A stretch of 64,000 nt of DNA, from assembly GCF_030684315.1 (NCBI RefSeq), contig NC_081365.1, positions 35,491,394-35,555,393 of the forward strand. Direction: 5' to 3'. The translations under genes were made by a program, and so were the position numbers. Each line of letters opens with the position of its first letter. Positions within the stretch are counted from its first letter, which is position 1. Of the stretch, positions 1-43,860 are shown in pieces. The DNA comes from Stegostoma tigrinum (lineage: Eukaryota). The notes beneath the pieces were generated by a model that searched no databases, was not told where the DNA came from, and saw only the letters and a list, made by a program, of their open reading frames with translations.

Positions 1-264
1 CCGTATGCCATCGTCTCAGTGGTGTTGATGAAATCTCGTGTCACTGGCATCTGTGAGCTGCTGGATTTCCACAGCCTTATCAATCTAACATTTGTTTTTG
101 AGCCTCCTTACCCACTTCTGCACATCAGCTTTGCTTTGGCATAGGCACTTGTTTTGGCCTTGCAGTAATGTTAATCTGCCAGTCACAGAAGGCTGTCCTT
201 TTTCCAGAGATGAGCTGTTCAATTTTACCACCATTCTCATCAAACAGTCCGGATGGTTTCCAGA

Positions 265-551
265 GATAGCAGGAACTGCCAATGCTGGAGAATCTGAGAT
301 AACACGCTGTGAAGCTGGATGAACACAACGGGCCAAGCAGCATCAGAGGAGTAGGAAAGCTTGACGTTTCGGGTCGGGACCCTTCTTCAGAAATGGGGGA
401 GAGGAAGGGGATTCTGGAATAAATAGGGAGACAGGAGGAGGCGGATAGAAGATGGATAAAAGTAGAAGATAGGGTGAGAGGAGACAGACAGGTAAAAGAG
501 GCGGGGTTAGAGCCAGTGAAGGTGAATGTAGGTGGGGAGTTGGGGGGGATA
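265..551 (-). mobile_element. Penelope-like element 3' fragment with hammerhead core
   Basis: Homologous to the 3' end of the PLE at 44290-44648. Minus strand 363-390 reads CTGAAGA-AGGGTCCCGACCC-GAAACGTC. TSD ggatggtttc(c/t)aga at 251-264 and 552-565. Confidence 0.85.
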
Positions 552-1235
552 GGATGGTTTCTAGACTTGTATTGGAGGGCGTTAGAGCAGGTACTGAGAA
601 TGGTTGATTTTAGCAGACTTCAGTATTCTCCTATGTCCTCTGGGTATTCCCAAGATAGAGTTTTAGTAAGTGAGGTCAGTAGATGTCACATAGTAACCAT
701 GTCACCTAGGGTCTTGATGTTGAACCTTGACTGAGTCTGCTTCTTCTGAACCCTCCTCTTTTGGTGTAGTCTGATGGACATTGTAGAACAGATAAGGTGG
801 TGATCAGTCTAGCAGCCATCTGAGCCGATCATAGCTTTGGTGACATTCATGTCCCGAAGGTCCTTGCAGCAAAGAATGACATGCTCAGTAAGGTGCCATT
901 GTTTTGAGTTGGGTACTTCCAAGATGCTTTGAATTTGTTTTTCTGATAGAAGAGTGTGTTTGTGTAGGTGAGGTTGTATTCAGTGCATTTTGTGAGAAAA
1001 AGGACTCCATTGGATTTGAAATTGCCAATACCTTCCTTTCCAATGGTGCCATTCTAATGGTTGTGGCCCCACCAACACTGGCATTGAAGTCTCCCGGAAG
1101 AATTATCTTCTGCTCCTTCGGGGTGCTTGTTGTCAGTATGTTAAGATTGGCATAGAAAATCTTCCTTACTTCCTCTTCTGGGTCAAGGGTTATGGCTTAA
1201 GTACTCACAACTATAGCCATCAGATTAGAACATAC

Positions 1236-1541
1236 GGCATGGTGGCTCAATGGTTAGCGCTGCAGCCTCACAGTGCCAGGGACCTGGGTTCAATCCAGCC
1301 TTGTGCGACTCTGTGTGGAGTTTGCGCATTCTCCCCGTGTCTGCGTGGGTTTCCTCCGGGTGCTCTGGTTTCCTCCCACAGTCCAAAGATGTGCACGCTA
1401 GGTGGATCAGCCATGCCAAATTGCCCGTAGTGTTCAGGGGTGTGTGGGTTATGAGGGGATGGGTCTGGGTAGGATGGTTCAAGGGGTAGTGTGGACTTGT
1501 TGGGCCAAAGGGCCTGTTTCCACACTGTAGGGAACCTAATC
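1236..1541 (+). mobile_element. tRNA-derived V-SINE (HE1-like)
   Basis: A box TGGCTCAATGG, B box GGTTCAATCC, V-SINE core (GTGTGGAGTTTGC..TTCTCCCCGTGTCTGCGTGGGTTTCCTCCGGGTGCTC), CR1/HER1-like tail. 9-bp TSD agaacatac at 1227-1235 and 1542-1550. Confidence 0.9.
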
Positions 1542-1550
1542 AGAACATAC

Positions 1551-1845
1551 AGAACTGTACAGGCTCTTTGGCCCACGCTGTTGTGCTGAACTTTTATCCT
1601 AAACTTAAGGTCTATCTAACCTCCATCCCTATGCCTATCTAATTGCTGCTTAAATGCCCCTAATGAGGCTAACTCCACTACCCTCTCCAGCAATGCATTC
1701 CACACCCCTACCACTCTCTGAGCAAAAAACCCACCTCTGACGTCTCTCCTATATCTACCTCCACTCACTTTAAAACTATGCCCCTGCGTAATAGCTACCT
1801 CCAACCTAGGAAAAAGTCTGGCTGTTCATTCTATCTATACCTCTT
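1551..1845 (-). mobile_element. CR1/HER1 LINE 3' fragment
   Basis: ORF 1616-1804 (TQGHSFKVSGGRYRRDVRGGFFAQRVVGVWNAL) is the CR1 ORF2 C-terminus, followed by the CR1 3' UTR. Confidence 0.85.
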
Positions 1846-3774
1846 GTTGGTGAACATCAGACAGATGGTCAAACAATCCCACAGGAAGTTCAGAGAGGCA
1901 ACTGATGAGCTGGTTCTTAATTGTGAAAGAATTCTGGGCTCATCAGCTGGCTTTCCTTGTCAGAAGAAGGAATAACCACCTTTTACCTTCTTCAGTTGCC
2001 CTTTGTCTGTAAAGGTGGGTTTCAGAAAGACTAGCAAGATTGACCTGGCATTTCTTTAGTTCTCTGGCTATGATTACAGTTCTTCTCTCAGTTCAGTCAT
2101 TGTTAGCTGGGTCCATCAGGGTTCTTACATTCCAGGCTCCAAAGTTTATTATTCTTTACTTCTGACCACATATGGGTGATTCCTCCGGATGTGGTAATTC
2201 AATCATGCGTTTTCAGGCAGACTATTTTTAGGGCATCTTTTCCAGCCCTTTACTGAGGTGAGCACAGCAGATCTTAAACAGGACCTGTTTTGAGGAAGGG
2301 TTACTAGATCTGAAACATTCCAATTTCTCTCCACAGATGCTGCCAGATCTGTGTTTTTCCAGCAATTTCTGCTGCTCAGTCGTGGGCACAGTTGTTGAAA
2401 TGCTCTACCTGCTTCATCCAGAGCAAGACAACTGAATCTGACACCCAAACCTAATGTGTCAGTTTGTGATTAGGGACTTGCAGATTTCACAATCCTGCGC
2501 CCCCCTCCGCTGCTAGCTGATCACCATAGGACTATTGTCTGGGATGTAAATAGAACTGGTGCCTCTTGGGAGGATGCCTGTGGGTGGTATTTTTTTAACA
2601 TGGGGAAGCTGGTGTACAGACAACCACCACATGAACTTTGGCAGATAAGGGTCAAACCCAGTGGCATGGAGACCAAGGTGATTGACAGCCGTTTCTGTTG
2701 TAGCTTACATTTATTTGCCTTCACAACCATTGTGGTGCAGTAATTTAAGTTCAGCTATCAGCCTCTGCCTGATTCACTGCTGAAGTCTTCATGAACCGCG
2801 TTTTGTTGGGAACCTACCCCTTGATCTGACTGTCACGGGTAACCCTTCAGGAGCTACTTTCCAGAAGGTTTAGCTTTCGGGTTCCTAGGCATACACAAGG
2901 CTCTCCACCGTCACCACCCCCCACCCCCCAAAAACAAGGTGTGATCCTTGGAGAGGTTATGTAATAATATTATGTAATAACTACTGTCAAACCATCTATC
3001 CTTCCCTGCAAAAAATAATTTCAGGTTGAGTCATATTCAAGAATATTAATGTTGCAGATTTTTAAACAAAAGTTTAATTTTTTCTGCTTCTGTTTTTCCA
3101 TTAACCCTGTATCTTTGTACAAGAAGCAAAATAATTATTCAAAATGTATTTTATATTCACTAATTTTGTGTCAAATGAAGATTCTTCAACAGATTTGTTG
3201 AATACTCTTTCTTTGATTTCTCTGCTCACAGATGTGCTGAGATCAAGTAGATGTGGAGATTACTAGTAATCTCATTTGCTTTTATCTTGTGCTCTAAGAC
3301 AATTACCTGTACATTGAATACTGTCTGGACTATTGTTGGCTGTGGATATCTGCAATATACACTGTCCCTGAGGATGCTTGCTCCTTATCATTAACAAGGC
3401 TCTTCATCTGTAAACACTATTTACATCCGCACATAGGAAAAGAAAACTACAATTCATAAACTATGCTCATTCTAAGATGGTATCTCTTACTGATGCCACA
3501 GTCATATGTTCAATTGCATCGTGATATACATAAATCTCATCATACCACATCACTGACAAGCCTGCTAGAGGTCCACGGATGTGAAAGGTGCACAGTAAAA
3601 GTTGTTCCTTCACTGCTAACAGCAAAATCCATTTCATGGAATTTCTGAAGCAGAAAATCCTATTCTGTGATCTGCGTCACTGTCAAGCTAATTTATTTGT
3701 GTCAACTAGATGTTTTATAAATTTAGAACCTGCTATTGTAGAGGATGCTGTCACTTTTTGTGGCAATTTGTCAT

Positions 3775-5515
3775 CTTACCATATTATGTATTGACTCATC
3801 TGTGCATGGATGGCATCACCGGTTTCTACTCAGATCCGCTGTCAGTGCATAGACTCATGAGCATCTGTAACCTGTTTGAACTGGCTTTGGGAGCTAAGGT
3901 AAATCAAGGCAAGAATGACACCATTTTCTTTGGGAGCTGGGCCACTGATCCTTTTAGATCCTTCACTGTCAGATCAGATTATCTGAAGATGCTAGGTATA
4001 TGGTTTGGAGGGGCCCAGGGGCATGTGCCAAAACTTGGGAGGAGTGTATTGCCAAGGTGTGATGGAAACTAGAGCAGGTGGGAACACCCATTGAGGGTAA
4101 AAAGCTAGACATCCGGTGTGAGGCACTATTTTTCTTGTTGTATGTGGCACAGGTCTGGACTATTCCCCAAGCCTGTGTCATTGCAGTTACCCAAGTCGTC
4201 TTCCATTTCACCTGGAGATCAAAGATAGACCATGCCCAAAGCTCTGGAAAAACAGGGGAAGAATGTATCCAACTTGATCCCACCTTCATCCTAATGGCCA
4301 CCTTTGTGTGTGGCTGCAGCAAACTGTGTGCAGACCCTCAATTTGTAAACACTGAATTTCACTAAGTACTGAGGTTCTACCTGTTCCCCATGTTGCAAAT
4401 GATAGGTCTGGCCTCATTGCTGTGGAATTCTCCAAGTAATTGGACAACTCTGTTTTACCTGTTCCCCATGGAAAAAATCTGCAAAGGAAACATCTTTGAT
4501 CACAAGTCCATCAGATAGTGTTCATGTAGCATCCCAGACGCTGTGGGAAAAGGAAAGAGCTGATTGATTTGGATAGTTTCTTGAGCAGACAAGTCATTTG
4601 GCAGAATGCCTCCTCATCAGCACTTTCCAACAGCATCTAGATGACGCTTGGCTGGTGGTAATAAGGGACATTCTCCACCACCATACTGCCCTTGAAGCGG
4701 CTGTGGCAATGAGGAGGTACAAAAAAGCAGACAGTCACATCTCCTGGAATGTAGAAAGAGGTGTGAAGCGTGATGCAATGGTTTTTGTCAAGGTTCATTC
4801 TGAGTGATGAGAAATCTGCAACCTCAGGGTGCACAACAAGATCAATTTCAACTTTGCTTGGAAGACCATCAACTGAGTGAAAAATGCTCTTTGTTCTGCC
4901 TGAAACCTGATCTTCCTGTGCAAAGATAACAAAGTGTGAAGCTGGATGAACACAGCAGGCCAAGCAGCATCTCAGGAGCACAAAAGCTGATGTTTCAGGC
5001 CTAGACCCTTCATCAGAGCTCTGATGAAGGGTCTAGGCCCGAAACATCAGCTTTTGTGCTCCTGAGATGCTGCTTGGCCTGCTGTGTTCATCCAGCTCCA
5101 CACTTTGTTATCTTGGATTCTCCAGCATCTGCAGTTCCCATTATCTTTTCCAGTGCAAAGAGTTGAGTTTGACCGATTTGTTGTAGACCGGCACATTCCG
5201 AGGTCCAGGACTATGTGCTGAGGGACGCACTAACGCTTGGACCGTCTGTTGCGAAGGCATGTTGGGAAAAGACCACCCAAGGTCTTTCTGTCAAATTTAA
5301 ATGGGGGTTCATTCAGTTATCAGACCCTCTCATTGCCTTGAACATATGTAAATAGTGTCCTGCATGAATAAGAATACCTTTGACATTTGCAACCGCAGGG
5401 AACATCAGATCCAATGCTTGTTTATCTTAATATGCAAAGACTGTACAAAACTGCTTTAGTACCTGTGTACAAAGACATTTTTTGAAGTGACTAAACATAT
5501 TTTTGCAATAAAAAT
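3775..5515 (+). mobile_element. Decayed Tx1/L1-clade LINE, RT C-terminal part and 3' end
   Basis: LCMDGITGF.SDPLSVHRLMSICNLFELALGAKVN..LKMLGIWFGG resembles the Tx1/L1 RT (YMDD-region derivative). Many stops; ends at AATAAAAA near 5508. Interrupted at 4926-5147. Confidence 0.7.
4926..5147. mobile_element. Palindromic PLE-derived mini-element with two head-to-head hammerhead cores
   Basis: Inverted repeat with 96-bp arms 4923-5018 and 5019-5114 (about 2 mismatches, no spacer), plus a 33-nt tail on the right. TSD ttcc(t/a)gtgcaaag at 4913-4925 and 5148-5160. Confidence 0.9.
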
Positions 5516-5863
5516 CATTACCTGTTGACCTATCATGCGCTATACCTTCAAGCTAAAATATGGTGTGTCAGCACGCATGCTAAAAAGAAAGTAGTTCTCT
5601 TGGTATGTTGTAATTACTTGTCTTTTATTTTTATATGGCTCTTTTGGCATTTCATTCAAAGATGGGAATCTTATTTTGAAGGTTATATTTAATGTAAGGA
5701 GAATAAACCCGTTTTGTTGGGGCATTCTCTGTCTAAGCAAGTTATATTTCTTTTGAAACTCCTAACCTTTCATGACTTACAACAAACTTCTGCCAATGAG
5801 TTTCTGCAACCAGCAGCTGGGAAATATTGGTAATGGTTTGGTGTAACTTTAACCTGGGTGAGT

Positions 5864-6440
5864 GATAATGGGAACTGCAGATGCTGGAGAATCCAAGATA
5901 ATAAAATGTGAGGCTGGATGAACACAGCAGGCCCAGCAGCATCTCAAGAGCACAAAAGCTGACGTTTCGGGCCTAGACCCTTCTTCAGAGAGGGTGAGGG
6001 TTCTGGAATAAATAGGGAGAGTTCGTCCCCTCCCCCCACTGCACCACACAACCAGCCCAGCTCTTCCCCTCCACCCACTGCATCCCAAAACCAGTCCAAC
6101 CCGTCTCTGCCTCCCTAATCTGTTCTTCCTCTCACCCATCCCTTCCTCCCACCCCAAGCCGCACCTCCATCTCCTACTTACTAACCTCGTCCCACCTCCT
6201 TGGCCTGTCCGTCTTCCCTGGACTGGCCTATCCCCTCCCTACCTCCCCACCTGTGCTCTCCTCTCCACCTGTCGTCTTTTCTCTCCATCTTTGGTCCACT
6301 TCCCCCTCTCTCCCTATTTATTCCAGAACCCTCACCCCATCCCCCACTCTGATGAAGGGTCTAGGCCCGAAACATCAGCTTTTGTGCTGCTGAGATGCTG
6401 CTGGGCCTGCTGTGTTCATCCAGCCTCACATTTTATTATC
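5864..6440. mobile_element. Tail-outward inverted PLE 3'-end element
   Basis: 5864-about 6020 is the PLE 3' end in minus orientation (core 5961-5988). About 6021-6440 is the same 3' end in plus orientation (core 6349-6376). 15-bp TSD ttaacctgggtgagt at 5849-5863 and 6441-6455. Confidence 0.9.
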
Positions 6441-8176
6441 TTAACCTGGGTGAGTTTGGGTTTGGCTAAGAGCTTAGATGTTAAAGCTTGAAATGCCAAA
6501 ACACACTGTCTCACTAAAATTTGGGGGCCAACTAGCTGAACACACAGTAGTGGGGTGGGGGTGGGGGGGAATCCAACTCATTTCCAGGCGCTGGATTGCT
6601 ACTTAAACATGCTAATGAGGTTAAAAGCTTCAGGTTTAATTGTGGGGTATGGGTTTCCATACACTGGGAATTCCAGCAAGACATGAAAGCCTCAGAAAGG
6701 CAAGTGCCTCCAGTGTGTACACTGTGCACATGTGCATGGAGAGGGAGAAGGAAGGAGAGAGAGAAAGAGATCAGAACTGTTTTATCTACACAACCCCAAT
6801 ATCTCCAGACAAAATCATACTTTGGGTTGGACTCTTTTGGATCCTCCTGGATCAGATCCTTTCCCTAGTGTCAGAATGAGGCACCTCTGGAATTGCAAGA
6901 CTACTTGGGATCAGGACTTTGACTCTCTGCACGAGTTGATGACTGGATGGCTTAGTCCTGCGGCATCATCCAGGATTTTCACTGCCCAGCAGAAAGCGAG
7001 CCTTTTGATCAATTAATTACTTTCCAGTGGAGAATCTGTTTGGGTCAAATGTTACATCAAATCCAGATTTGGATTTTCTCATGAGCTATTGGACTTCTCC
7101 AGCAAGTAAAAGTTTCCTCCAGTACTTCAGCTTAGAGACTTGACAATGAAAGCTTAGGTCAAATTTGTGTCCTCGCTTTCCAACAATTGTTAGCAGTATA
7201 AAGTTTTAATACGGTTATGATTTTGGACTCTTTAAGGTAAAATGGAAGGAGGAAGAAGTTCGTATGACCTGGTCAGAATGCTGAACAATTCAGTGGCTTG
7301 GGTTGCTGTGGAGATGAAAGGGTCCCTAAGTCAAGAGGTTTGTTGAGGAGGTACTAGATATTCATATCCATTGTAGAAAAGCAAGAGCAGCTGTGCTGAC
7401 TGAGGAGGCTGTTCATCTCCAAGTCTCACATGGCAGTGTTAGGAATATTAGGCCTTAAATGGTTAATTTAAAATCTGTTTAATTTCAAGTTAGAATGCGG
7501 TTGAGGTCTAGAAGATAGCTAATTGTCAATTCGCCCTGCATATGTCTGGCATGATTCAAATTGTCACAGAAATGACTTTGAGAGGGCAAGAGTCCGCAGA
7601 AAGTCATTGTAGGATTGTTCTTAACATAACACATCACTGAACTGCTCAGACCAAAGTCGGTCTGCAAAAAACAGAGTAAGAGGGGATAGCAGGAATATAG
7701 CGTTGGCTATCCTGTACCTGAAGCAGAGAAAAATGATGATTCTCCTGTTCATTATACAATGCAGGTGGGAGCTTTCATTCTGATCGAAAAGAATGCATTC
7801 GTGAGAATTTAAAAGGAGAATGGAAGATTTACTTAGGGGCAGTTAAGAGTCAACCACATTACTGTGGGTCTGGAGTCACATGTAGGCCTAACCAGGTAAG
7901 GACAGCAGATTTCCTTTCTTAAACAAAAAGGACATTGGTGACCCAATACAGTCTTATGACAATTGACAATAGTTATGTGGTCACCGTTGTGCTAGTTGTT
8001 TTGATACTATAGATAGTGAAATTTGAATTTTGTCAATCTATAGTAAGGGATTTGAATCAATGTCTCCAGATCATTAGCCTGGGTTCTGAATTCCCATTTC
8101 CACAATGCCATCACCTCTCCCTTTTACTTAGTCCGTTTAATGCAAAGGCGAAAGTTCTTTAAACAAGTGTTTTTAC

Positions 8177-8397
8177 CTCATGGGCATGTTTAGAGAATGT
8201 CTCTGCACTCGCCATCATAGCTGCAGTTCGGTCCTCCAGTTCACCCAGTCTCTGTCCACGTTCATCCAAAGCAATCCGAGCACGGGCTAGATCTCCAACA
8301 ACCCCAGAGGCTGCACCTTTAACTCCCTCAAGTCCACCAGGTCCAGGGATATGCTGAGCAAGAGTCCGAGATGCCTTGCCTGCTGAAGCTTCACCAA
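8177..8397 (-). CDS. STXBP5L: STXBP5L (tomosyn-2) coding exon, R-SNARE motif (penultimate coding exon)
   Basis: ttaag|TT..GAG|gtaaaa, 221 nt, phase 1 to 0. Encodes (F)GEASAGKASRTLAQHIPGPGGLEGVKGAASGVVGDLARARIALDERGQRLGELEDRTAAMMASAETFSKHAHE, the tomosyn VAMP-like domain. Confidence 0.97.
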
Positions 8398-11879: not shown

Positions 11880-13775
11880 TCATACCCCTACCCAGATGAA
11901 GCTTTGGAAAAATATCAGGACAGTAGGACCAATCTGAAATGAGGAATTCAGAGGGCTAAAAGGGGCCATGAAATATCTTTAGCAAACAGGGTTAAGGAAA
12001 ATCCCAAAGCCTTTTACTCATACATAGGGAGCAAGAGGGTAACTAGAGAAAGGGTTGGTTCACTCAAGGACAAAGGAGGGGAGTTATGCGTGGAGTCAGA
12101 GAAAATGAGTGAGATTCTTAATGAGTACTTTGCATCAGTATTCACTGAGGAGAGGGACATGACGGATGTTGAGGTTAGGGATAGATGTTTTATTACTCTA
12201 GGTCAAGACAGCATAAGGAGGGGTAAGTGTTGGGTATCCTAAAAGGCATTAGAGTGGACAAGTCTCCAGGTCTGGATGGGATCTATCCCAGGTTTCTGAG
12301 GGAAGCGAGAAAGGAAATAGCCGGGGCCTTAACAGATATCTTTGCAGCATCCTTGAACACGGTGAGGTCCCAGAGAATTGGAGAATTGCTAATGTCTCCT
12401 TGTTTAGCCAGGATAATCCAGGTAATTATAGACCGGTGAGCCTGACGTCAGTGGTGGGGAAGCCGTTGGAGAAGATACTGAGGGATAGGATCTATTTACA
12501 TTTGGAAGAAAATGGGCTTATTCGTGATAGACAACGTGATTTTTGGGAAGGTCATGTCTTACCAACTTGACAGAATTCTTTGCGGAAGTGACAAAGTTGA
12601 TAGATAAGGGAAGGGTTGTGAATGTCATATACACGGACTTCAGTAAGGCATTTGATAAGGTTCCTCGTGGCAGGCTGAAGGAGAAAGTGAAGACACGTGG
12701 GGTCCAGGGTGTGCTAGCTAGATGTGTCGAGAACTGGCTGGGCAACAGGAGACAGAGTTGTAGTGGGAGGGAGTTTCTCAAAATGGAGAACTGTGACCAG
12801 TGGTGTTCCACAGGGATCTGTGTTGGGACCACTGTAGTTTGTGATATACATAAATGATCTGGAGGAAGGTACAGATGGTCTGATTAGCAAGTTTGCAGAT
12901 GACACCAAGATCGGTGGAGCAGCAGATAGTAAAGAGGGCTGTTGGAGAATGCAGCAGAATATAGATGAGAGAATTGGGTGGAGAAATGGCAGATGGAGTT
13001 CAATCCAAGTAAATGCGAGGTGATGTATTTTGGAAGATCCAATTCAAGAGCGAACTATATGGTAAATGGAAAAGCCCTGGGGGAATATTCATGCACAGAG
13101 AGATCTGGGTGTTCAGGTCCATTGTACCCTGAGGGTGGCAATGCAGGTGGATAGAATGATCAAGAAGGCATACGGCATGCTTTCATTCATCGAACAGGGT
13201 ATTAAGTACAAGAGTTGGAAGGTCACGTTACAGTTGTATACGACTTTGGTTCAACCACATTTGGAATACTGTGTACAGTTCTGGTCGCCACATTACCAAA
13301 GAATGTTGATGCTTTGGAGAGGGTGCAGAGGAGGTTCACCAGGATGTTGCCTGGTGTGGAGGGCGCTAGCTATGAAGACCGGTTGAGTAGATTAAGATTA
13401 TTTATGTTAGAAAGATGGAGGTTGAGGGGGGGACCTGATTGAGGTCTGCAAAATCATGAGAGGTATAGACAGGGTGGATAGCAAAAAGCTTTTTCCAAGA
13501 GTGGGGGACGCAATGACTAGGGGTCATGATTTCAAGTGAGAGGGATAAGTTTACGGGAGATATGCGTGGAAAGTTCTTTATGCAGAGGGTGGTAGGTGCC
13601 TGAAACGTGTTGCCAGTAGAGGTGGTAGAGGCAGCACGACAGCGACATTTAAGAATAGGCAGGGAGCAGATGGATACAGATCCTTGGAGAATAGGCAACA
13701 GCTTAGATAGAGGACCTGGATCATTGCAGGCTTGGAGGGCTGAAGGGCCTGTTCCTGTGCTGTAATTTTCTTTGT
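11880..13775 (+). mobile_element. CR1/HER1 LINE, 5'-truncated, frameshifted RT
   Basis: ORF fragments KSPGLDGIYPR, GRSCLTNLTEFF, DFSKAFDKVP, KFADDTK, PHLEYCVQFWSP, followed by the CR1 3' tail GGGCCTGTTCCTGTGCTGT. Confidence 0.93.
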
Positions 13776-14725: not shown

Positions 14726-14829
14726 GAACATAAATAGAAGTTGCTGGAAATGCTCAGCAGGTCTGGCAGCATCTGTGAAGAAAAAAAATCAGAGTTAACA
14801 TTTCAGGTCTGGTCACCTTTCCTCAGAAC
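14726..14829 (-). mobile_element. Mini-PLE (second family) beginning at a hammerhead core
   Basis: Minus strand AGTT-CTGAGGA-AAGGTGACCAGACCT-GAAATGTT, then CACAGATGCTGCCAGACCTGCTGAG. 11-bp TSD taaagaattag at 14715-14725 and 14830-14840. Confidence 0.75.
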
Positions 14830-15757
14830 TAAAGAATTAGTTTGTTTTTAGTTTGGTCCAATGACCTCAATATAATTTAAGGTAAACTAAAGATAATCTC
14901 ACAGATGCTTCATTCATAATATTTTCAGTGAAATTTTATAATGGCCACTCACCAACTACATTTATTTTGCTGCTCATAAATGGAGAGGAGGAAAACATGG
15001 AAACCAATGGTAGTATGAAAGGAGGGGAAAAGTATGCAATAAGGAAGATAAAGCACTTAGAAAGAAATGGCAGTAGAAATGTTTCATAACAGGAGAAGCT
15101 AGTGATGAAAGAATTAAATGAATACCATTTACACATGAGGTTTCAGTGAATAATGTATTAAAAGACTAAATCAAAGGCAAAGTAATTTTCATATAAATAT
15201 TGTACAACTTGTCAGATTTAATGAGGATTTGTAACTGAGAAAAATAATAATTCATGATAAATAATGACATTAAATTGTTGGTAGCATAATGATTTAAAAA
15301 TTATCTTGTGATGTTTGATTGTAGCTCCAATTTGCGGCAGCTTGGAGTAGTGGTCCACTGGGTCATGTGAGTTCCTCATACTGTTGAATTCATGATGTAA
15401 ATTATGCTGCGGGGACAAGTTAAACAGAGATCAGGAGTTGCCAGAACCAGAGGTAGGCAAAGATTGTGTAAAAGATTTAAGGAAGGAATTGAAAGAGTAT
15501 GAACGGCAAAATCACTATTGCCATTAGAGAGAGAACTGAGAAAAAAAAAGATGTCTTGACCCATTGTCCCTGATTTCCTACACATCTGATTTGTAATGTC
15601 AGGAGATTTAAACGGAATGAGAAAAATGGGAACAATTACCTGAAAATATAGAATACAGGCGTATATCTTACATTTAACTTTTTACAATATCAAGTGGAAG
15701 AAATTAGAAAATTACAGCAGCGAATCAAGTGCACTACTTACAATACATGGAAGTTAC

Positions 15758-20878: not shown

Positions 20879-22606
20879 ATGCAGGGAAATTCTTGCATGT
20901 AGTTGCAGATTCAAATATAGTAAATGTATCATTTATATACTTTAAATATGGAAGGGGTAGAAGATCAGGTGTCATTCCATTGAATACACATGATGAAAAT
21001 ACATAAATGTTTTGGGATTATGCAGTTAGGTTGGGGAAAAAAGGAAGATATTAAATTTCAAACACTTTCTGCACTAAAATTGATCTATTGCTATTAATTG
21101 CTGGGAACTGTTCTTTGGAAGAGACTATAGGGCCTCTTTTCTGATGGTTACCTAACAACCCCCACTGGATTTAACACCTGCTTCAAACATTGTGGAGAAT
21201 TGGGAAAAAAAATGAGAAGTAGCAACAGGAAACAGTAAGGCTGCCAGAATTGCATGCATTTCCCCCTGTTTGAAGTTATTGGGTACCTGATAAAGTTTAC
21301 TCATCACAGTATTTTGTCTACCTAGTAGACTCTTAGAAGCTGATCTGTGGCCACTTTATTACGACTTGGAAACAGCTTCATTTCCAACCAAACTGAAGCT
21401 TTCTTGGAAAATTTCCCATTGGTACATGACTGATAGTACTTAGATTTTGTCAAAAAGAAGCTTGGTGGACTGTAAGAATTCATCAACCCTTTTCTTCTCT
21501 GAAGAGAGCATCCCAACCTGAAACGTCAATTTTCCTGCTCCTCTGATGGTGCCTGGTCTGCTGTGTTCCTCCCAGTTCTATAAATATGTTATCAACCTAT
21601 TATCTTTAGTTCACAGATACTGATTAGTGAGGGTCTCTTTACTTTTGTTCTCTTTTTAAAATATCGTCTGTTCAGAGCTGTTGTTGTCCTGTTTGTTTGT
21701 TTTGGATTAAAAGGGGATATAGTTTTAATTTTGGACTAAGATAATGAACCAGTTTTTCTATTTGTTTAAGAATACGTTTAGTGTTAAAATAAACTGATTA
21801 TTTTGAATTTACTTAAGTTTCTTATTCTGAAAAGCAGTTTCAAAGGGAAACAATTGACCATTTTGGTGATAGAATTTACACATTTAGGCTGATAGGCTTA
21901 ATTATCAACCAATTCCTCCCATCATGTTTCTAATGGGACCCAACAAAGAGATTTGCAAGAGTTGGGCTGAGCGGGGATCCCATGGTAACTCCATCCATTG
22001 GGGCATACACAGTCTTTAAACTGAACTCAACTGTGTGAGTTGTTGAGTTCATAAGTTTAATGAATACTAATTCATACAATAGGTAATGTCTCTAGATCAT
22101 CACTAAAAGAACATACACGCATATTCTATATCCATGCAACAAAATGTGACAGCTGTTCTCTGGTTCATTTTTCTTAGGGTTATTCTTTGACTAATCAGAG
22201 TCAGCTTGCTTCATATAAATTTAAACAAAGCTTGACAGTTGATCGTCAATGTCATTAACTTGTGCATCCTCAAAAGGCAATGCTTCTGTCAGTCAATTTG
22301 CCAACCAATCAGCATTCTCATATAATGTAAACACTACCTTCCCTTTTACTTTGGTAGTTTTTATGAATTGCCCTTATTGAGAAATGTCATTTTTCAGCAT
22401 CACTGGAATTCTGTACTATCAAACAACTGCATTTTTGGATATTGTGTGGTGTGATTTATTAGTTCTAATGCACTGGATTGCACCATCAATATGTTATCAA
22501 AATTTCCAAATTTCAAAGTTCCAATCTGAAAAATTTAATGTTTATCCCTTAAGTTCATTAATCACAGGTCAATCATTCATCACTTACTGATGAAACTTAG
22601 TCTTAC

Positions 22607-25135: not shown

Positions 25136-27254
25136 GGTCAAGCGATTGTTGCATAAAGCACAAAACAGGAAGTCTGATACAGACTTTCTTAAACCTATCA
25201 CAAGTAAATAAGGAAGATCTATCTCAAGTAAATAAGGAAAACTAATCCTCAGTTGAAAGGCCAGTCAGCAGAAAAGATGAATGAAAGTCATTGCCTATGT
25301 TCGTAGTGTTGCAGTCTGGTTGATGATGGTAGAGCAATAATTATGAATGAGTACCCTGATGTACCATAGGAAGTGAAAAGCTATAGATTCATATTCATTT
25401 ACCTTCAAAGCAAAGGTAGTTGTTATTCAATTCAGTTGGCTATGTGACCTTTGCATCACAATTAATAAAAATAACTTCATTAGAATGCTATTTTTCTAAT
25501 CTCCAATACCACAGACCTTTCCTGAATTTAACTTTGAATCATTCTGACTTTGGCTCCTTTTATATCTTTCTTCCTTCCAATGTCACTCTAGGTAATCATC
25601 ACTTCAGTCCCTTTGCTCTAGAATTCCTTTGTTAAACTTATATCTTCACCATCTCCTTTAACACTCTGCACAAAATCCACTCTTTTAATGGTTTCTCCAA
25701 ATTTTTGAATTTTGTTTTGGTTCATTATTCATTTAATACCTGTCTTTCTCTCGGTTATTTTTTACGTTAAAGATGCTATATATGTACAATGTTTTGTGAC
25801 AAAAGCGTGTGTCTGATCACTCAGATTTGTTTTTTGAAAATACAGTTAAATCGGCACAATTCATTTACATAGAGTTCAGGATCAGTCGTCCTGGAGACTT
25901 CAGAACACAAAAGGAAGTGTTTTAATTTCTACTCCTATCACAATAGCCATTTACGGACAAACCTAATAAATGTTTCTCCTAACAATACATACTAAGTAGT
26001 AGATTAATCATCTACTGGGGCTTTAAGAGTACCTAAGTGTTTTATGGGGAGACATAAAACAAAGAACAAGTCAACAGTTCAGATATGTTCTAATTAACCT
26101 GTTCAGAGATGATGTTATTACACAATTGGAAGAGGTGGTACTTGAATTGTGACCTTTGGCTCAGAGGTAGGCACATTACCATTGCACCAAAAGAGACCTA
26201 AACTAACAGTTTAAGGATCTACATTGTATAGGGTTTGGCCTGCTATATCTTTTGCTCAGAAAGTGGCTTTTATTGGTTAATTGGATTACTTGTCAATTGG
26301 CATGACAACTAACTATTCTGCTATGTACTTGTATTTTTAACATATATTGACTGGGATCAATTTGGGTTTTGAGTCCCTGTAACAAAATTGAGTTTGAAAA
26401 CAATGATCAGTTGAAGACTTCATGGCTTAAATAACAGCTGGTGCCACAATCAAAAGCATCAGTATTAATAGTATCTATAAAATCTGATATCCATCAAACA
26501 ATAGGAAAATAAGCAAAGACATTACCACATGCTAGAATTGCTCACTCATTTATGTTTTGTTTATGACTGATGAAATGGAGTAAAATCCAAACACTGACAG
26601 TGTTCAACATGGGCAAAAACATCAACAATGGGCAATGCTTCAATAACAGAGGTTTGAAGGGATACGCAAATGACGTGCAGATTCAAGAAAGGCTGTTTAA
26701 AGAGACAGAACCTCATCTCGCCCTGAGTTTGATTAGCATGCTACAATTCACATTGACTTGGAATCATTGGGCTAAATCTTACTTTTTTTGGCTAAGTCTG
26801 AGTTGCATCAGATTTTTATGAAAGACTTGTCAATGCAAGACTGAACAAGTTCTTGCCCATCTTCCAAACTCACCTCATTGATTGTCAACCATGACCATAG
26901 TGTGTTTCTCATGCCCAGTTTCCACCCCATCTTACCACTTGCCATTCTCCGAACTACTCGTCACACAATGGATATCTGATGAAAGACGGAATCCATCATG
27001 TCCACGCTATCTTTGAAAACTCATGGTGCTCATGGGCAAGCACTATCTGTTCAGAACTAGCTTGAGTGGTTGCTCATATTTGCCTTGGACAGGGCAAATA
27101 GGATATTTATGTTCTTCTTTGCGGAGGGATGCAGTGGAGTTCACAGCATCAGGCCATGCCATCTGAAGAAGGTTCCCAACCCAAAATGTCAACTTTCCTG
27201 CTCCTCTGATGTTGCCTGGCCTGCTGCATTCCTCCAGCTCCACACCTTGTTATC

Positions 27255-27730
27255 AGACCCTGCCATGCCTGGTTCAAGGTTCCCAGCTGGGTTAGAACCA
27301 TCTTAGCTGTCTAGAGAAATGCATAGAACATTAGGATCAAGGTCAATATTTTTCTGCATTCCAGCAGGGTAAGTGCCACCACCTTCTCCCTGATACCTCA
27401 CTTACTCAATCACTGTTCCTGTACGCACCTCTCACCAAGGCCCATGATCAACCACTCTGTCAGATGCAACATCTTCCTTCACTTGCTATCACACCCCCAA
27501 CCCCAATACCATTCGCCCTGCATACCCTCTGGACTGCCTACTTACTTTGTCAGGACATCCCCTTAACTGTACCAAGAGTGATTGATGGGCTACCCATTTT
27601 CATTTCCTATAATATCTGCCACCCTTTCATTCCAGGAATAAGACAGCTCACAATGGGCAGAATGAATCAAGACAGGTGGTATGCTGATCAACATTTGGCT
27701 CCTTACCTTTTTATGAGGGTAGGATGCAGA
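27255..27730 (+). pseudogene. Decayed Harbinger Myb/SANT-like gene remnant (two exons)
   Basis: RIKVNIFLHSSR|gtaagtgcca at about 27335-27378, then ttcattccag|..KTAHNGQ..IKTGGML..LLTF.E at about 27635-27720. Parallel to the 52.2-52.8 kb remnant. Confidence 0.55.
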
Positions 27731-28061: not shown

Positions 28062-30325
28062 ATTTCAACTTTCCAAACTGGGAACACTATAGTTCGAGTA
28101 CTATAGATGGATCAGTTTTTGTCCAGTGTGTGCAGGAGGGCTTCCTGACACAGTATGTAGATAGGCCAACAAGGGGCGAAGCCACATTAGATTTGGTACT
28201 GGGTAATGAGCCTGGCCAGGTGTTAGATTTGGAAGTAGGTGAGCACTTTGGTGATAGCGATCACAATACTGTTATGTTTACTTTAGTGACGGAAAGGGAT
28301 AGGTGTATACCACTGGGCAAGAGTTATAGCTGGGGGAAAGGCAATTACGATGGGATTAGTCAAGATTTAGGGACCATAGGATGGAGAATGAAACTGCAGG
28401 GGATGGGCACATTAGAAATGTGGAGCCTATTCAAGGAAAAGCTCCTGTGTGTCCAAGATAAGTATGTACCTGTCAGGCAGGGAGGAAGCTGTAGAGCGTG
28501 GGAGCCGTGGTTTACGAAGGAAGTGGAATCTCTGGTCAAGAGGAAGAAGGCGGTTTATGTTAGGATGAGATGTGAAAGCTCAGTTAGGGCGCTTGAGGGC
28601 TATGAGGTAGCCAGGAAAGACCTAAAGAGAGGAGATAGGGGAAGCACTAAATGAATATTTTTCGACAGTATGTACTCTAGAAAATGACAATGTTGTCGAG
28701 GAGAATACCGAGATACAGACTACTAGACGAGGTGGGATTGAGGTTCACAAGGAAGAGGTATTAGAAATCCTACAGAGGGTGATGATAGATTAGTCTCCTG
28801 GGCCGGATGGGATTTATCCTAGGATCCTCTGGGAAGTCAGGGAGGAGATTGCTGAGCCTTTGGCATTGATCTTTAACTCGTCACTGTCTACAGGAATAGT
28901 GCCAGATGACTGGAGGATAGCAAATGTGGTTCCCCTGTTCAAGAAGGGGAGTAGAGACAACCCTGGTAACTATAGGCCAGTGAGCCTTACCTCAGTTGCT
29001 GGTAAAGTGTTGGAAAAGGTTATAAGGGATAGGATTTATAATCATCTAGAAAAGAATAAATTGATTAGGGATAGTCAGCACGGTTTTGTGAAGGGTAGGT
29101 CGTGCCTCACAAACCTTATTGAGTTCTTTGAGAAGGTGACCAAACAGGTAGATGAGAGTAATGTGGTGTATATGGATTTCAGCAAGGCGTTCGATAAGGT
29201 TCCCCACAGTAGGCTATTGTACAAAATGGGGAGGAATGGGATTGTGGGAGATATAGCAGTTTGGATCGGAAATTGGGTTGCTGAAAGAAGACAGAGGGTG
29301 GTAGTTGATGGGAAATGTTCATCCTGGAGACCAGTTACTAATGGTGTACCGCAAGGGTCAGTGTTGGGTCCACTGCTGTTTGTCATTTTTATAAATGACC
29401 TGGATAAGGGCGTAGAAGGATGGGTTAATAAATTTGCAGACGACACTAAGGTCGGTGGAGTTGTGGATAGTGACGAAGGATGCTGTAGGTTGCAGACAGT
29501 CATAGATAAGCTGCAGAGCTGGGCTGAGAGGTGGCAAATGGAGTTTAATGCACACAAGTGTGAAGTGATGCTCTTTGGTAGGAGTAACCGGAAGGCAAAG
29601 TACTGGGCTAATGGTAAGATTCTTGGTAGTGTAGATGAGCAGAGAGATCTCGGTGTCCATGTACACAGATCCTTGAAAGTTGCCACCCAGGTTGACAGGG
29701 CTGTTAAGAAGGCATACAGTGTTTTAGCTTTTATTAATAGAGGGATCGAGTTCCAGAACCAAGAGGTTATGCTGCAGCTGTACAAAACTCTGGTGCGGCC
29801 GCACTTGGAGTATTGTGTACAGTTCTGGTCACTGCATTATAAGAAGGATGTGGAAGCTTTGGAAAGGGTGCAGAGGAAATTTACTAGGATGTTGCCTGGT
29901 ATGGAGGGGAGGTCTTACGAGGAAAGGCTGAGGGTCTTGAGGCTGTTTTTATTAGAGAGAAGGTTGAGAGGTGACTTAATTGAGACATAGAAAATAATCA
30001 GAGGGTTAGATAGGGTGGATAGGGAGAGCCTTTTTCCTAGGATGGTGATGGCGAGCACGAGGGGGCATAGCTTTAAATTGAGGTTGTGAAAGATATAGGA
30101 CAGATGTCAGAGGTAGTTTCTTTACTCAGAGAGTAGTAAGGGTATGGAATGCTTTGCCTGCGACGGTAGTAGATTCGCCAACTTTAGGTACATTTAAGTC
30201 ATCATTGGACAAGCATATGGACATACATGGAATAGTGTAGGTTAAATGGGCTTCAGATCGGTATGACAGGTTGGCACAACATGGAGGGCCGAAGGGCCTG
30301 TACTGTGCTGTAATGTTCTATATGT
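28062..30325 (+). mobile_element. CR1/HER1 LINE, 5'-truncated, with long open RT
   Basis: ORF 28031-28654 (EN C-terminus: LDLVLGNE..FGDSDHN) and ORF 28860-29990 (376 aa RT: NYRPVSLTS, DFSKAFDKV, GVPQGSVLGP, FADD). 3' tail GGGCCTGTACTGTGCTGTAATGTTCTAT. Confidence 0.96.
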
Positions 30326-30494: not shown

Positions 30495-31917
30495 TAAAAA
30501 CCAAAAGAACTGCGGATGCTGTGAATTAGGACCAAAAACAGAAGTTACTGCAACAACAGTTCTGAGGAAAGGTCATTGCACCTGAAACGTTAACACTGTC
30601 TTTTCCTTCGCAGATGCAGCCAGATCTGCTGAGCTTTTCCAGCAACTTTATTTTTGTTCCTGATTTACAACATGCGCAGTTCTTTTTTCAGTTTTAACAG
30701 AAGTTGCTGGACGAGCTCAGCAGGTCTGGCAGCATGTGTGAAGAAAAAATCAAAGTCAATGTTTCATTTCCAGTGGCCCTTCCTCAGAACTGATGTTGTC
30801 TGGGAAAACCTTGGTTTAATATGCAGAAATAGGGAGGGGGATGGGGTACAGCCTCCAAAATGTCCACCTTCTTCCTCAACTGAGGATTCCCAGTACCATT
30901 GTCAACAGGGTCTTCAACCAGATCTGACCCATTGCCTGCAATTCTGTTCTCACCCCTTCTCTTCCTGCCCACAACAGCAATAGGGTTCGCCTTGTCCTTA
31001 CCTACCATCCTACCAGCGTCCACATCCAGAAGATCATCAGACCCCATTTCCACGAGCGAGGTGCCACTACCAGACACACGTTCTCCTCCCCTCTCCTGTC
31101 TGCCATTCGCAGGGACTGTTCCCTATAGGAGACCTAGGTCCCCTCTTCCTTCACCCCCAGTACAGCGCCACAGCTCTATGGCACCTTCTGCTGTAACCAG
31201 TGAAGGTGTAACACCTGCCCATTTACTTTCTCCCTCCTCACTATCCAAGGGTCCAAATATATCTTCCAGGTGAAGCAGTACTTTACCTTTACTTCCCAGA
31301 ATCAAGTCTACTGCATTTGCTGCTCACAATATTGTCTCCTCTACATTAGGAAAATGAACCATAGGTTGTCTGATTGCTTTGCAGAACATCTGCTTGTTCT
31401 CCTTGCAAAAAAGACCCTGAGGGACCTGTTGCCTGCTGCTTTAACACACCACCCTGTTCCCTGGCCAATATCATTGTCTCTGGCTTGCTGCAGTGTTTCA
31501 GTGAAGCCCAAGACAAGTTGGAAGAACAACACCTCATCTTCTGCTTGGGGACCCTGCAACTCTCTTAACTCAATATCGAGTACAATAATTTTTGGGCCTA
31601 ACTCTCGCTTGTCCTAGCCCCTACTCCACATAGCCTGCCATTACACTCTACCTATTGTTAGTCACTATTAACAACTATTACCCAGATTGTTATCAACTCC
31701 TTTGTCTATCCAACTGCTCTTCTCTCTCTTCTGGCTCAATCCTATCATTTACTCCTTACCCCATCCCCTTCCCTGTTTTCTGCATAGAAATTGATGTTTT
31801 CCCAGCTGCCATCAGTTCTGAGGAAGAGTAACAGGTACATTAACTTTGATTTTTTTTTTCTTCACAGATGTTGCCAGACCTGCTCAGCTTTTCCAGCAAC
31901 TTCTGTTTTTGTTCCTA
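30495..31917. mobile_element. Cluster of second-family PLE pieces, including decayed RT-thumb/GIY-YIG with inverted ends
   Basis: The plus strand from about 30852 encodes a broken PLE C-terminus (KMSTFFLN*GFP..LVLTYHPTS; FTFTSQNQVYCICCSQYCLLYI..RLSDCFAEHL). CTGAGGA..GAAACGTT core near 30562. A minus-orientation 3' end lies at about 30697-30850. Confidence 0.8.
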
Positions 31918-32062
31918 AAAACTTGCTGGCTGTTTTCCAACATGGTTGTTCAGAGTAAGTGGTGAGCTGAAATCACCAGGTACTCGCTCTGGTGTTGTTG
32001 TTAAGTTCTCCTGATGTTGAGCTTGTTTGGTAAGATGGGAAACTGAATGTTAATAAGGTGAG

Positions 32063-32656
32063 ATAACAAGGTGTAGAGCTGGATGAACACAACAGCATCA
32101 GAGGAGCAGGAAAGCTGACGTTTTGGTTTGAGACCCTTTTTCAGAAATGGGGCAGGGGAAGGGGATTCTGAAATAAATAGGCAGAGAGGGGGAGACGGAT
32201 AGAAGATGGATAAAAGGAGAAGATAGGGTGAGAGGAGACAGACAGGTCAAAGAGTCAAGGTTGGAGCCAGTAAAGGTGAATAAAAGTAGGGAGTTAGGGA
32301 GGGGATAGGTTGATCCAGGGAGGATGGACAGGTCAAGGAGGCAGGATGAGTTTAGTAAGTGGGAGATGGGGTCCGGCTCCCTAACTCCCCACCTACACTC
32401 ACCTTTACTGGCTCCACCCCCACTTCTTTGACCTGTCTCCCCTCCACCTATCTTCTTTATCTGTCTTCTATCCACCTATCTCTCTCTCCCTATTTATTTC
32501 AGAATTCCCTTCCCCTCCCCCATTTCTGAAGAAGGATCTCGATCTGAAACGTCAGCCTTCCGGCTCCTCTGATGCTGCTTGGCCCGCTGTGTTCATCCAG
32601 CTCTACAGTTTGTTATCTCAGATTCGCCAGCATTGGCTATTCCTACTCTCTCTGTA
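32063..32656. mobile_element. Tail-outward inverted PLE 3'-end element
   Basis: Left part is minus, right part is plus orientation of the same 3' end; core CTGAAGA..GAAACGTC at about 32526-32553. 13-bp TSD ttaataaggtgag at 32050-32062 and 32657-32669. Confidence 0.85.
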
Positions 32657-33544
32657 TTAATAAGGTGAGTTGGGCTATCAACAGGATGTTTAACAAGCAG
32701 TAACCAGTCCCAATTTGCAGCTTTCTGCTGCTAGCATTAATCTAGCCACATTGCTTATCAAAATCACTAAAGATGGTGTTAGTGGCTCCCATTGTATCGA
32801 GATGGGCCTTGTCACATTTGTTGTCCAATTCTGTCACATACCTTGCCATAGCCCATATTGCTCAGACCCTTGAGATTCTGCCCAATGTCTTGTCACTCAA
32901 AGTTAAATAATTTTGGGATATATGAATGTGAGTCTGAAAATTTTCAGCAATTAATGGATTCTTCAATGTTTGAGTTACAATGAAAATTGTTAATAGTTGG
33001 CTGGCTCATTGTATAAACAATCTGGAAATTGAGGAATAGCAAAGAAGGAAAATAATCATGTTGGATTAAAATGGTGAAGCAAAGATCCAGAAACCACAAT
33101 TAAATCTATCCTTGTTTAAGATTAGAATATAAAATTCTGCTGAAAACTGTTGTAGACATTCTTTCCCTCCAAAAATAGTTTCAGAAAAACTGTTACTGAT
33201 AACTATCAATATCCTCTAAATGTGACTCCAATAATGTTTTGTGACTTGTACCCCTCAAAAATAGAAATACTTCGCAGAAAAGACCACTCCAGCCTTCTCT
33301 AAAATGCACATGGAGAAAACAAAATACACTTTAAACTTATTTGATTTTTTTTAGCAGAACCAGCATCTTTTAATAAACCTGTTGCTACCTTTACATCAGG
33401 GAAGCAGATACATTAAGGCTAAGTTTCAAAAGGGTGTGGAGAATATTTCTACACATATTGTTCAAATAGGGTCTATAGTTCTTGTAACTAAAATTTGCAA
33501 TGATCATATTGTCGTACATCAGTCCTTTTGGCATACATGTTCAG

Positions 33545-35169: not shown

Positions 35170-35576
35170 TTCATATTTTCAAGAATGCACAAAACATTGG
35201 ACTAACAATAACAGAGATGATTTTAACACAGAGACCACCAGAATGCTTGAAAAATACTCACTTGATTGGCTGGATTGCTTCAATTGTGATGAAAAGTATT
35301 GAACTTGTATATAATATTTTTGGGATTTGGATTTTGAAATAGAGGCAGATGGATGTGGATCAGTTCTGTGAAGTTTTTTTTAAGAATAAAAAATGATCAA
35401 AGAATAGACAGTAACCTAATATCATTTGTAAGAAGGCATGTGACTTAGGCCAACTGCCTAGCAAGTTGATGATAATGATTGAAATATTTATGCTATTGAG
35501 TTTATCGCAGGCAGAGTAAACAGAGCAAAGAAGAAGAATCATCAAGTCAGTTCAAGAGAACAAGTCACCTCAGAGG

Positions 35577-35697
35577 TTTATTCCAGTTCCCTCTCCCCAT
35601 CCCCCTCTCTGATGAAGGGTCTAGGCCCGAAACGTCAGCTTTTGTGCTCCTGAGATGCTGCTTGGCCTGCTGTGTTCATCCAGCCTCACATTTTATT
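35577..35697 (+). mobile_element. Mini-PLE with intact hammerhead core
   Basis: CTGATGA-AGGGTCTAGGCCC-GAAACGTC at 35609-35636. 10-bp TSD acctcagagg at 35567-35576 and 35698-35707. Confidence 0.88.
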
Positions 35698-36949
35698 ACC
35701 TCAGAGGAAGTAGTTTCTTGTTTGTGAAGTTTCCAACCAAATGTGGTTTAAAAGTCTTCCAAGTGGTTAGAACTAAGAAAAATTAAGCCATCAGAATTGT
35801 GAAAGATTCATGTCGGCTTACTCAAAAGGAATCATAAACAGAAAAATGTTCTTAGCAGTCCAAGGGGAAAAAAAAACTGGGAAGCATCAGTTCTGTCAAG
35901 ATTGGAAAAATTGAGCTGTTAATGGTATTCCTCTGGGACTGATTCCCTGAAATGTTTCTGGATTGTTATGGGAAACAGATTGAAACTTTTTGATGAGAAC
36001 CTCATGGTAAATGTAACAAAGACCAGACTTCCTTTCCATGTACAGGGGAAAAGGCAATAGATTTTGATTTTTAAAATGCCTTCACAATAGGCATAGGCAA
36101 TAATTTTAGACTGTTGTAGATGAATGCCAAAAATATTAGACATATATTTTCTTTTACATGGTCTTGCTTCTGATGTAATAGTTCTCTTTCCGTGTAATTA
36201 TCCAAAGCTCTTACTTGTTAAAGGACATTTGGGAGCATTGGGTTTATTACTGTCCCTCAGGAGTAAATATTTTTGGCAGAATTGTGTAGAACTTACAATT
36301 TTATGATCTTTCAACTCAGCCTCCCATGTAAGGTTTATTAATTGGGATAGTGAATGAGTTGTGAAGTTGAACATATTTGGTGCTTGACACTTTGCTGAAC
36401 AGAAACCCTCTATAAAGCAAGCTGGCCAATTTAAATTTCTTTTTATTCAAATTAGATATTCTGTCACGAACAGGGATCCTATAGCCATCCTAAAAAAGGA
36501 GACAACAAAATGATTTCCCTCTTGGGTAATGACTATATATTCTGTGGCTGAGCATAAATTGGCATCACAATTCTTAAACTGCACATATTGCAGTTTTCTT
36601 TTGTGTTATTGTTAATTCACAATTGACAGAATAGTTTTCAAGGGGATAACAGACAACAAAATATAATTAACAGAAGGAAGAATAAGAGAAGAAATTCATT
36701 TCACAGCTAACTGTTTCTCCTGTGTAAAATTGGCATAAAATCTCTTAATATTGCAGCATAGTCTTGTGCCCGATTATACGCACAGTCACATTGACTCATA
36801 ACTCTATCCTATTTAAGACATCCCTTTAAAACATATGATAATCTTCATAAATATGCAAATAAGGGACCTGCATCAACAATTTAAGGAATCGGAATGTGAA
36901 ATTAAAATGTAAATAGTCTGGATATGCTCTGTCTGGATGCACCAGGCAT

Positions 36950-43814: not shown

Positions 43815-43860
43815 GGTGGCGGGTGCATGGTGGGGGAGGGGCAGGGACAGAGTTGGGATT

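Follow-up and report, generated by a model that had tools for sequence, protein, structure and literature searches.

A 192 bp palindrome in the window (the whole 64,000 nt stretch of DNA analysed here) is very probably a single, extremely 5′-truncated insertion of an endonuclease-positive (EN+) Penelope-like retrotransposon, or PLE. Its two arms, each 96 nt long, are 98% complementary, have 0 nt between them and mismatch at two sites only (4997/5040 and 4939/5098). A preliminary description of this DNA had reported 96 bp arms with two mismatches and no spacer, a centre at 5018/5019 and two hammerheads in head-to-head orientation, all of which we confirmed. The sequence CUGAUGA is found on each strand 2 nt from the centre, at 5021 (+) and 5016 (−), leaving the two cores 4 nt apart. 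The palindromic unit contains no ORF, and both arms are cut back to the same base, which yields the 192 bp palindrome.

The right arm alone is followed by a tail of ~31 nt, which makes the inserted unit asymmetric: an inverted tail-less copy is joined to a forward copy with a tail. This tail was overlooked when the unit was initially taken to be symmetric, and only the palindrome within it stands as symmetric. A target-site duplication (TSD) surrounds the whole unit, as had been proposed, with a measured length of 14 bp including one mismatch (13 matches) instead of 13 bp; as many as 13 matches were reached in 0 of 1000 random position pairs put through the same search. The 2-4 nt common to the left TSD and the end of the left arm are a possible candidate for a priming microhomology. 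Furthermore, the two 3′ termini of the PLE family, at the arm end (5108-5113) and the tail end (5141-5146), are separated by 33 nt and carry an identical short motif, TTATC(T). Coordinates of all features are collected in Table 1.

Table 1. Features of the palindromic insertion and of related sequences in the window
Feature	Position	Strand	Remarks
Left target-site duplication	4913-4926	+	14 bp; last 2-4 nt overlap the left-arm end
Inverted tail-less PLE end copy (left arm)	4923-5018, true end 4924-4926	−	From −2 to ~+92 relative to C of CUGAUGA
Minimal type I hammerhead core, left arm	4989-5016	−	Sense copy on host-gene strand; G10.1-U11.1 and C15.2/A16.2 defects
Junction	5015-5020	+	Blunt join, both arms ending at −2; 5′ strand of a paper-only 6 bp helix I with 5049-5054
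Forward PLE end copy (right arm)	5019-5114	+	Matches the 3′ end of the RT+GIY-YIG element (44520-44647) at 94.5%
Minimal type I hammerhead core, right arm	5021-5048	+	AUC triplet; helix III palindrome broken
One-sided PLE tail	5115-5145	+	~31-33 nt between two termini, both ending TTATC; public contigs have loose ends at 5113 and at 5146
Right target-site duplication	5148-5161	+	Alignment to LINE homologue P0018 resumes here
Decayed LINE ORF remnant (insertion target)	4180-5277, leftward to about 3700	+	Homologues with RVT_1, zf-RVT or Exo_endo_phos; tblastn on both flanks
Asymmetric head-to-head pair, same family	5849-6455		Arms −41 (with tail) and −323 (without tail); 15 bp TSD
Tomosyn-family (STXBP5/STXBP5L) R-SNARE exon	8177-8397	−	Ends in GT donor at 8176; sets host strand
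Long parent PLE copy	41629-44662	RT − (41880-43859), GIY-YIG + (43860-44174)	3′ pyrimidine tract, hammerhead at 44522, tail, perfect 14 bp TSD

A single insertion into a decayed LINE

The target of the insertion is the remnant of a LINE. Its left-flank frame has 31 relatives by phmmer, and RVT_1, zf-RVT or Exo_endo_phos domains are present in 9 of the 12 that were scanned. One homologue, P0018, aligns through residues 1-276 to positions 4180-4926 and through residues 265-312 to 5127-5270, and the overlap between the two segments covers the TSD. Because this alignment continues across the site and overlaps on the TSD, the target must once have been continuous and the palindrome must have arrived as one event. 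The earlier view that the palindrome was inserted as one unit is therefore upheld by the TSD and by P0018, and its retro-derived origin holds as well. No second copy of the flanking LINE was found within the 64 kb window.

Public contigs were compared with the window for runs X1 and X4 (two samples of one study, organism A), X5 (organism B) and X12 (organism C) at likeness 88, with 176,112 contigs of X1 aligned. Contigs covering 4500-4948 (X1 and X4) and 5123-5219 (X1) show 0 differences to the window, and 0.99 of 147 words sampled from the window are present in X1 and X2; no RNA run is among the listed matches. The left-flank contigs reach 26 letters into the arm and the right-flank contig carries 23 letters of the tail, against a bridging threshold of 31 letters. 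For organism C the left flank is covered from 4526 to 4888 with 29 differences in 367, and no X12 contig extends across the insertion site. Contigs of organism B (X5) leave the left flank uncovered.

An assembly fold-back artefact, which the preliminary description had named as fatal to its reading, has next to no probability. In its favour, none of the listed public contigs joins the palindrome centre to unique flank, and the best-matching public run may itself be the source of the window. Against it stand the two differences between the arms, the one-sided tail, the 14 bp TSD and the LINE homologue that is continuous across the site, along with the zero-difference contigs running from flank into arm in X1/X4 and the nearly complete recovery of sampled words.

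The parent element and other copies in the window

Beyond the two arms, the arm sequence has 11 further matches in the window. The parent copy at 41.6-44.7 kb is, as judged by its domains, an EN+ Penelope-like element, with RVT_1 at E 1e-6 and GIY-YIG at E 0.008, the latter a weak match below the Pfam cut-off; the scan took in 300 of the 589 stop-to-stop frames of at least 45 aa. The protein clusters nearest to its RT in the Atlas are eukaryotic RT proteins (score 0.98), in clusters that bear no PLE name. Furthermore, a Cys motif located in the segment linking RT to EN, read against the clade description in the consulted part of PMC8557442, suggests membership of the Neptune clade.

The RT part of this copy is inverted and its GIY-YIG part is forward, and the two pieces meet with a 3-4 nt overlap. 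We interpret this arrangement as a 5′ inversion of twin-priming type (a term taken from L1), in which internal priming would have occurred from the second target strand. A literature search for titles on inverted or twin-primed Penelope yielded none on PLE structure. Elsewhere in the window, a 398 aa open frame at 28794-29987 (+) matches RVT_1 at E 1e-37 and represents a LINE fragment, and another RT remnant lies at 12253-12567.

Two further pairs of the family, at 5864-6442 and 32061-32654, consist of head-to-head arms with different stops, such that the apparent spacer is the surplus length of the longer arm. In both asymmetric pairs the tail sits on the shorter arm. The palindrome can be viewed as the symmetric limit of the series that these pairs form. 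Among the five tail-less solo copies, four start within ~10 nt of the hammerhead core.

The length of the TSD differs between the two kinds of copy. All five tail-bearing insertions (251-565, 4913-5161, 5849-6455, 32048-32669 and 41629-44662) have TSDs of 14-15 bp, and all five tail-less solos (21480-21597, 27153-27269, 35565-35707, 49835-49957 and 58953-59120) have TSDs of 6-12 bp. The Mann-Whitney p value for this split is about 0.01, where one mismatch was allowed, the ends were picked by hand and the 6 bp case is weak. This difference suggests that cleavage has a different stagger for the two start sites. Two of the solo copies have additional sequence at their beginning. Ahead of the copy at 58945-59120 come ~60 nt of T-rich filler together with another, partial CTGATGAAG. 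A 9 nt non-parental prefix at 49845-49853 is similar to the bases that directly follow the hammerhead cut site, which could reflect chance or a template jump.

A second, older family of minimal hammerheads is present at 30500-30800, 14760-14830, 31810-31910 and 53380-53480. Its members have a CUGAGGA or CUGAAGA core, a GUU triplet and a helix I of 2-4 bp, and at 30.5 kb three arms occur in inverted and tail-to-tail arrangement.

Ends and centres of the family in public contigs

The numbers given here come from 15 of 1247 joints and 24 of 1689 loose ends, and are not exhaustive counts. In X1 the listed loose ends fall at 5113 (1527 contigs), 5146 (980), 4924 (737), 5112 (620), 5020 (399) and 5110 (382), and the numbers for X4 are nearly identical. 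Those at 5113, 5112 and 5110, the mirror position 4924, and 5146 are 3′ ends, and 5020 is a 5′ end. The family thus has two 3′ ends, one tail-less and one tailed, and a cluster of 5′ ends located 1-5 nt before CUGAUGA. The hammerhead cut site (5049) coincides with no loose end among the 24 listed, and on this basis it was provisionally rejected as the template's 5′ end.

Head-to-head centres at different coordinates account for 12 of the 15 joints listed. In four asymmetric joints among these, a shorter left arm meets a right arm that begins at −3 to −5, and the intervening letters are parental upstream sequence. A centre that differs from the present one by a single letter (A at 5019) occurs in 73, 65, 0 and 32 contigs of X1, X4, X5 and X12, corresponding to 12%, 12% and 31% of the depth at that base in X1, X4 and X12. 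Junction positions are thus neither random nor fixed: a 5′-end cluster precedes the core, and each insertion has its own centre. What speaks against this reading is that the depth left at 5019 may be due in large part to the exact AG|CT centre. The preliminary description had asked whether the same centre recurs and had set random junctions against its own reading; a one-letter variant is present in three of the four runs, the centres among the listed joints are heterogeneous, and randomness was not borne out.

Three other joints are located elsewhere in the genome. Joint 4990>5047, with CG between its arms on the GACGTC palindrome of helix III, is a symmetric centre found in 2 contigs, whose depths of 498 and 886 compare with ~9-22 for single-copy flank. 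Tail-to-tail inversions (joint 5112>5145) occur in 35-36 contigs, and a joint of head-to-tail tandem type (5146>5019) occurs in 40 and 44 contigs.

A variant shared by both arms

At the site GAAAC(G/A)TC, both arms carry A. The G at 5046 represents 72%, 72%, 91% and 66% of the depth in X1, X4, X5 and X12, and the A variant, a product of CpG decay, reaches up to ~28% of family depth in organism A. A third arm, 1.3 kb away, has it as well (at 6349), and overall it occurs in three of the seven young arms. The chance that both arms decayed independently is at most ~0.08 (organism A), a low value that makes a shared template likelier. The arms of the 5864 pair also share a private base. One template or conversion between the arms had been offered as explanations for the shared variant. 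A single template lineage suffices, and we rejected gene conversion as unneeded, since the CpG-decay variant is widespread and the neighbouring pair shares a private variant of its own.

Hammerhead cores and helix I

Rfam at gathering scores returned 0 matches in the 64 kb window, and the hammerheads described here were recognized by motif pattern. At the junction helix I could comprise 6 bp, as compared with 2 bp in the long copies. When the symmetric junction is moved through positions −15 to 0, 6 bp are obtained at only 1 of the 16 positions (−2), which coincides with the 5′-end cluster. Two of the six pairs are parental, and the next two follow from the self-complementarity of the four bases after the cut site. 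Of 15 cores examined, five reach 6 bp with a junction at −2, every one of them from the young AGCU subfamily; the remaining 10 reach 0-2 bp (one of these being off register by 1 nt).

Several features argue against ribozyme activity of these cores. Specifically, the hammerhead fold is predicted to cost 53.6 (+) and 56.3 (−) kcal/mol relative to the hairpin. Minimal PLE hammerheads need dimerization and conserve the 15.2-16.2 palindrome and the G10.1-C11.1 pair, according to the available text of Cervera and de la Pena (2014; PMC4209133). Both arms here have A at 16.2, which breaks the 15.2-16.2 palindrome (ACGU for the helix III of the dimer), and in the left arm, which is the host-strand arm, a C>T change at position 11.1 of helix II places U in the RNA and breaks G10.1-C11.1. 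In addition, with the cores on opposite strands, every transcript contains a single core together with its antisense. On these structural predictions, both ribozyme motifs are almost certainly inactive here, and the hammerheads can be considered passengers. The 6 bp stem I that the preliminary description found missing from the parental copy thus exists as a pairing on paper, and a functional meaning for it is not supported, given sequestration in the hairpin, restriction to one subfamily and the broken helix III.

Head-to-head hammerheads outside the family

The exact core of the family was found in 0 metagenome contigs, and a looser core in 0 viral contigs. The looser core did identify 119 loci in metagenome contigs, 0 of which have a blastn match to the palindrome arm. 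Among the 103 of these loci with at least 150 nt upstream, 28 have a head-to-head inverted arm (23 distinct by centre), compared with 0 in a shuffled control; the cores are no more than 45 nt apart in 20 and 4 nt apart in none. Loci L007, L013, L046, L076, L082, L099 and others contain minimal-hammerhead families unrelated to the PLE arm, head to head with cores 16-42 nt apart. Among these motif-defined metagenome loci, minimal hammerheads in close head-to-head arrangement are thus common, and the exact 4 nt spacing is absent.

Host gene and double-stranded RNA

The exon that sets the host strand matches Pfam Synaptobrevin (E 2e-5) and PDB 1urq_A (E 3e-25), and comparison with the Atlas does not separate STXBP5 from STXBP5L. 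The last tomosyn coding exon was not found in 1-8175 with peptide motifs or with a loose rule. Because a further coding exon is expected and none was found in 1-8175, the palindrome is likely to reside in the last intron. The original assignment to an intron of STXBP5L thus agrees with a tomosyn-family exon on the minus strand, with the paralogue left at STXBP5/STXBP5L and the intronic position deduced from the exon search.

RNA corresponding to 4905-5165 is predicted to fold as a hairpin of −192.4 kcal/mol (z −22), with 0 of 200 shuffles equally good, which supports the earlier proposal of a long double-stranded RNA if the region is transcribed. Heavy editing affects palindromic repeats in frogs and Penelope in lizards, as described in the consulted part of PMC5625713. 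By analogy, use of the hairpin by ADAR or Dicer is plausible, and it would be a generic property common to other inverted pairs nearby. In host pre-mRNA, the unit would be an inert or edited hairpin of 96 bp.

Origin of the palindrome

We consider it likely that the palindrome was made by reverse transcription from both target strands, with two primers, followed by joining of the cDNA ends. As the TSD indicates, the PLE protein would have made a cut with a ~14 nt stagger in the decayed LINE. One target 3′ end would then prime reverse transcription at the outer start site, at the end of the tail, and the other would prime at the inner start site ~33 nt upstream, as suggested by the one-sided tail and by in vitro work on Anolis Poseidon. 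Both cDNAs would be copied from the same template lineage, to which the shared variants point, and both would stop at the preferred 5′ boundary of the family 1-5 nt before CUGAUGA, which could be an RNA 5′ end or a stop of the RT. Blunt joining of two cDNA ends that stopped at the same base would produce a palindrome lacking a spacer. Since the same RNA segment is copied in both arms, the two-primer model needs two RNAs or re-copying of one.

The same PLE insertion might instead have gained its inverted arm by self-priming, through fold-back of the antisense RNA or the first cDNA at the junction. Palindromes at head-to-head junctions of rotifer Penelope elements are read in this manner in the available text of PMC3846280, a symmetric centre recurs on the GACGTC micro-palindrome (joint 4990>5047), and the arms share variants. 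We nevertheless regard self-priming as unlikely, because the junction is blunt relative to the parental upstream sequence, without loop or microhomology. Moreover, in the pairs at 5864 and 32 kb it is the shorter arm that carries the tail, a pattern that rules out fold-back from the first cDNA and remains compatible with the antisense-RNA version. Longer pairs in the window and the many skips across the centre in public contigs also bring to mind a longer asymmetric inverted pair, like 5864-6442, that later lost its centre by deletion. Deletions usually remove palindromes instead of perfecting them, and here the two arms stop at one and the same base, within the 5′-end cluster of the family that solo copies use too, making this history highly improbable.

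Selection for the junction itself would be a different kind of explanation, in which the inverted arm completes a 6 bp helix I and the palindrome is a selected, re-mobilized MITE-like unit. The strongest argument for this proposal is the single 6 bp position, which coincides with the 5′-end cluster. It has only a very slender chance given the energetic cost of the hammerhead fold, the confinement of the 6 bp to the young subfamily with conserved features broken, the variant centre with A at 5019 that destroys the helix, and unit ends that are not terminal inverted repeats. Also very doubtful is a scheme in which, in this subfamily, the inverted pLTR supplies the missing half of helix I, a transcript started inside the junction is a stronger ribozyme than the 2 bp parental form, and AG|CT palindromes are enriched and re-mobilized as a non-autonomous retro-palindrome family, of which the copy here would be a decayed member. 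We thus favour two-primer insertion.

Taken as a locus, this is a dead PLE stump of an ordinary sort, and it exemplifies in very short form a known kind of insertion. Its value comes from the genome being rich in this PLE family, of whose very numerous frozen insertion products it is one. According to the consulted part of PMC8557442, the way in which PLEs form inverted structures has yet to be defined, and countable signatures of the family could separate the two-primer route from self-priming: two 3′ termini, 5′ ends clustered at helix I instead of the cut site, a tail on the shorter arm, and a longer TSD with the tail. PLE stumps may in addition be mistaken for MITEs during annotation, and they readily supply intronic dsRNA.

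Comparison with known systems

We found no description, mostly in open-access main texts, of spacer-less head-to-head PLE hammerhead palindromes or of the present PLE family in sharks. The insertion resembles known PLE products. In the parts of the texts consulted, PLE insertions are reported to have an inverted 5′-truncated copy adjoining the 5′ end and a 30-40 bp tail, in many cases restricted to one end (Craig et al., 2021; PMC8557442), and rotifer PLEs have an inverted pLTR, a 31 bp tail, TSDs of 8-10 bp and junction palindromes for which self-priming was proposed (Arkhipova et al., 2013; PMC3846280). We find a parent with RT and GIY-YIG (the latter weak), an inverted 5′-truncated copy, a tail at one end, a TSD and a minimal hammerhead. 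Shared with the EN+ insertions of both texts are the head-to-head copies, the ~31 nt tail on one arm, the TSD around the unit, the hammerhead in the pLTR and a parent with RT and C-terminal GIY-YIG. In contrast to those insertions, the palindrome has no ORF, its arms extend to the same base and its TSD is 14 bp versus 8-10 bp in the rotifer examples.

In Anolis carolinensis, the PLE Poseidon (PAc) cleaves both target strands and extends them, and its reverse transcription starts at two internal sites bounding the tail, with hammerhead cleavage not needed (Frangieh et al., 2024; PMC11167929, in the part available). Two 3′ termini bounding a tail, use of both target strands and listed ends that avoid the cut site are common to PAc and the family described here. 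The parent of the palindrome differs in its Cys motif, which points to Neptune, and head-to-head products are not described in the available PAc text.

The cores share CUGAUGA, an unpaired base before helix II, a short helix I and the lack of a helix III loop with the minimal type I hammerheads of PLEs, which in Schistosoma include pairs on opposite strands at distances of 100-700 bp (Cervera and de la Pena, 2014; PMC4209133, in the part available). The pair studied here is 4 nt apart, however, the 15.2-16.2 palindrome is lost in both members, and their opposite strands prevent a same-strand dimer. Non-LTR retrozymes (bioRxiv 10.64898/2026.07.22.740005, in the part available) are likewise short non-coding PLE-derived sequences with type I hammerheads in a vertebrate; they are head-to-tail tandems with at least two complete hammerheads, whereas the unit at 4913-5161 is head to head.

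The likeness to a MITE noted in the preliminary description does not hold, in view of the one-sided tail, the 14 bp TSD like that of other tailed RT insertions and the heterogeneous centres. We rejected this class because on one side the unit ends in the tail and not in the palindrome, and because different centres make up 12 of the 15 joints listed. The only coding relative found is a retroelement. A palindromic Harbinger MITE of Xenopus (PMC5625713, in the part consulted) does share a size of ~200 bp, a tight hairpin and a likely role as ADAR substrate if transcribed. Unlike MITEs, the palindrome is retro-derived, has ends without terminal inverted repeats and a long TSD, and belongs to a series of copies in which the centre varies from one to the next.
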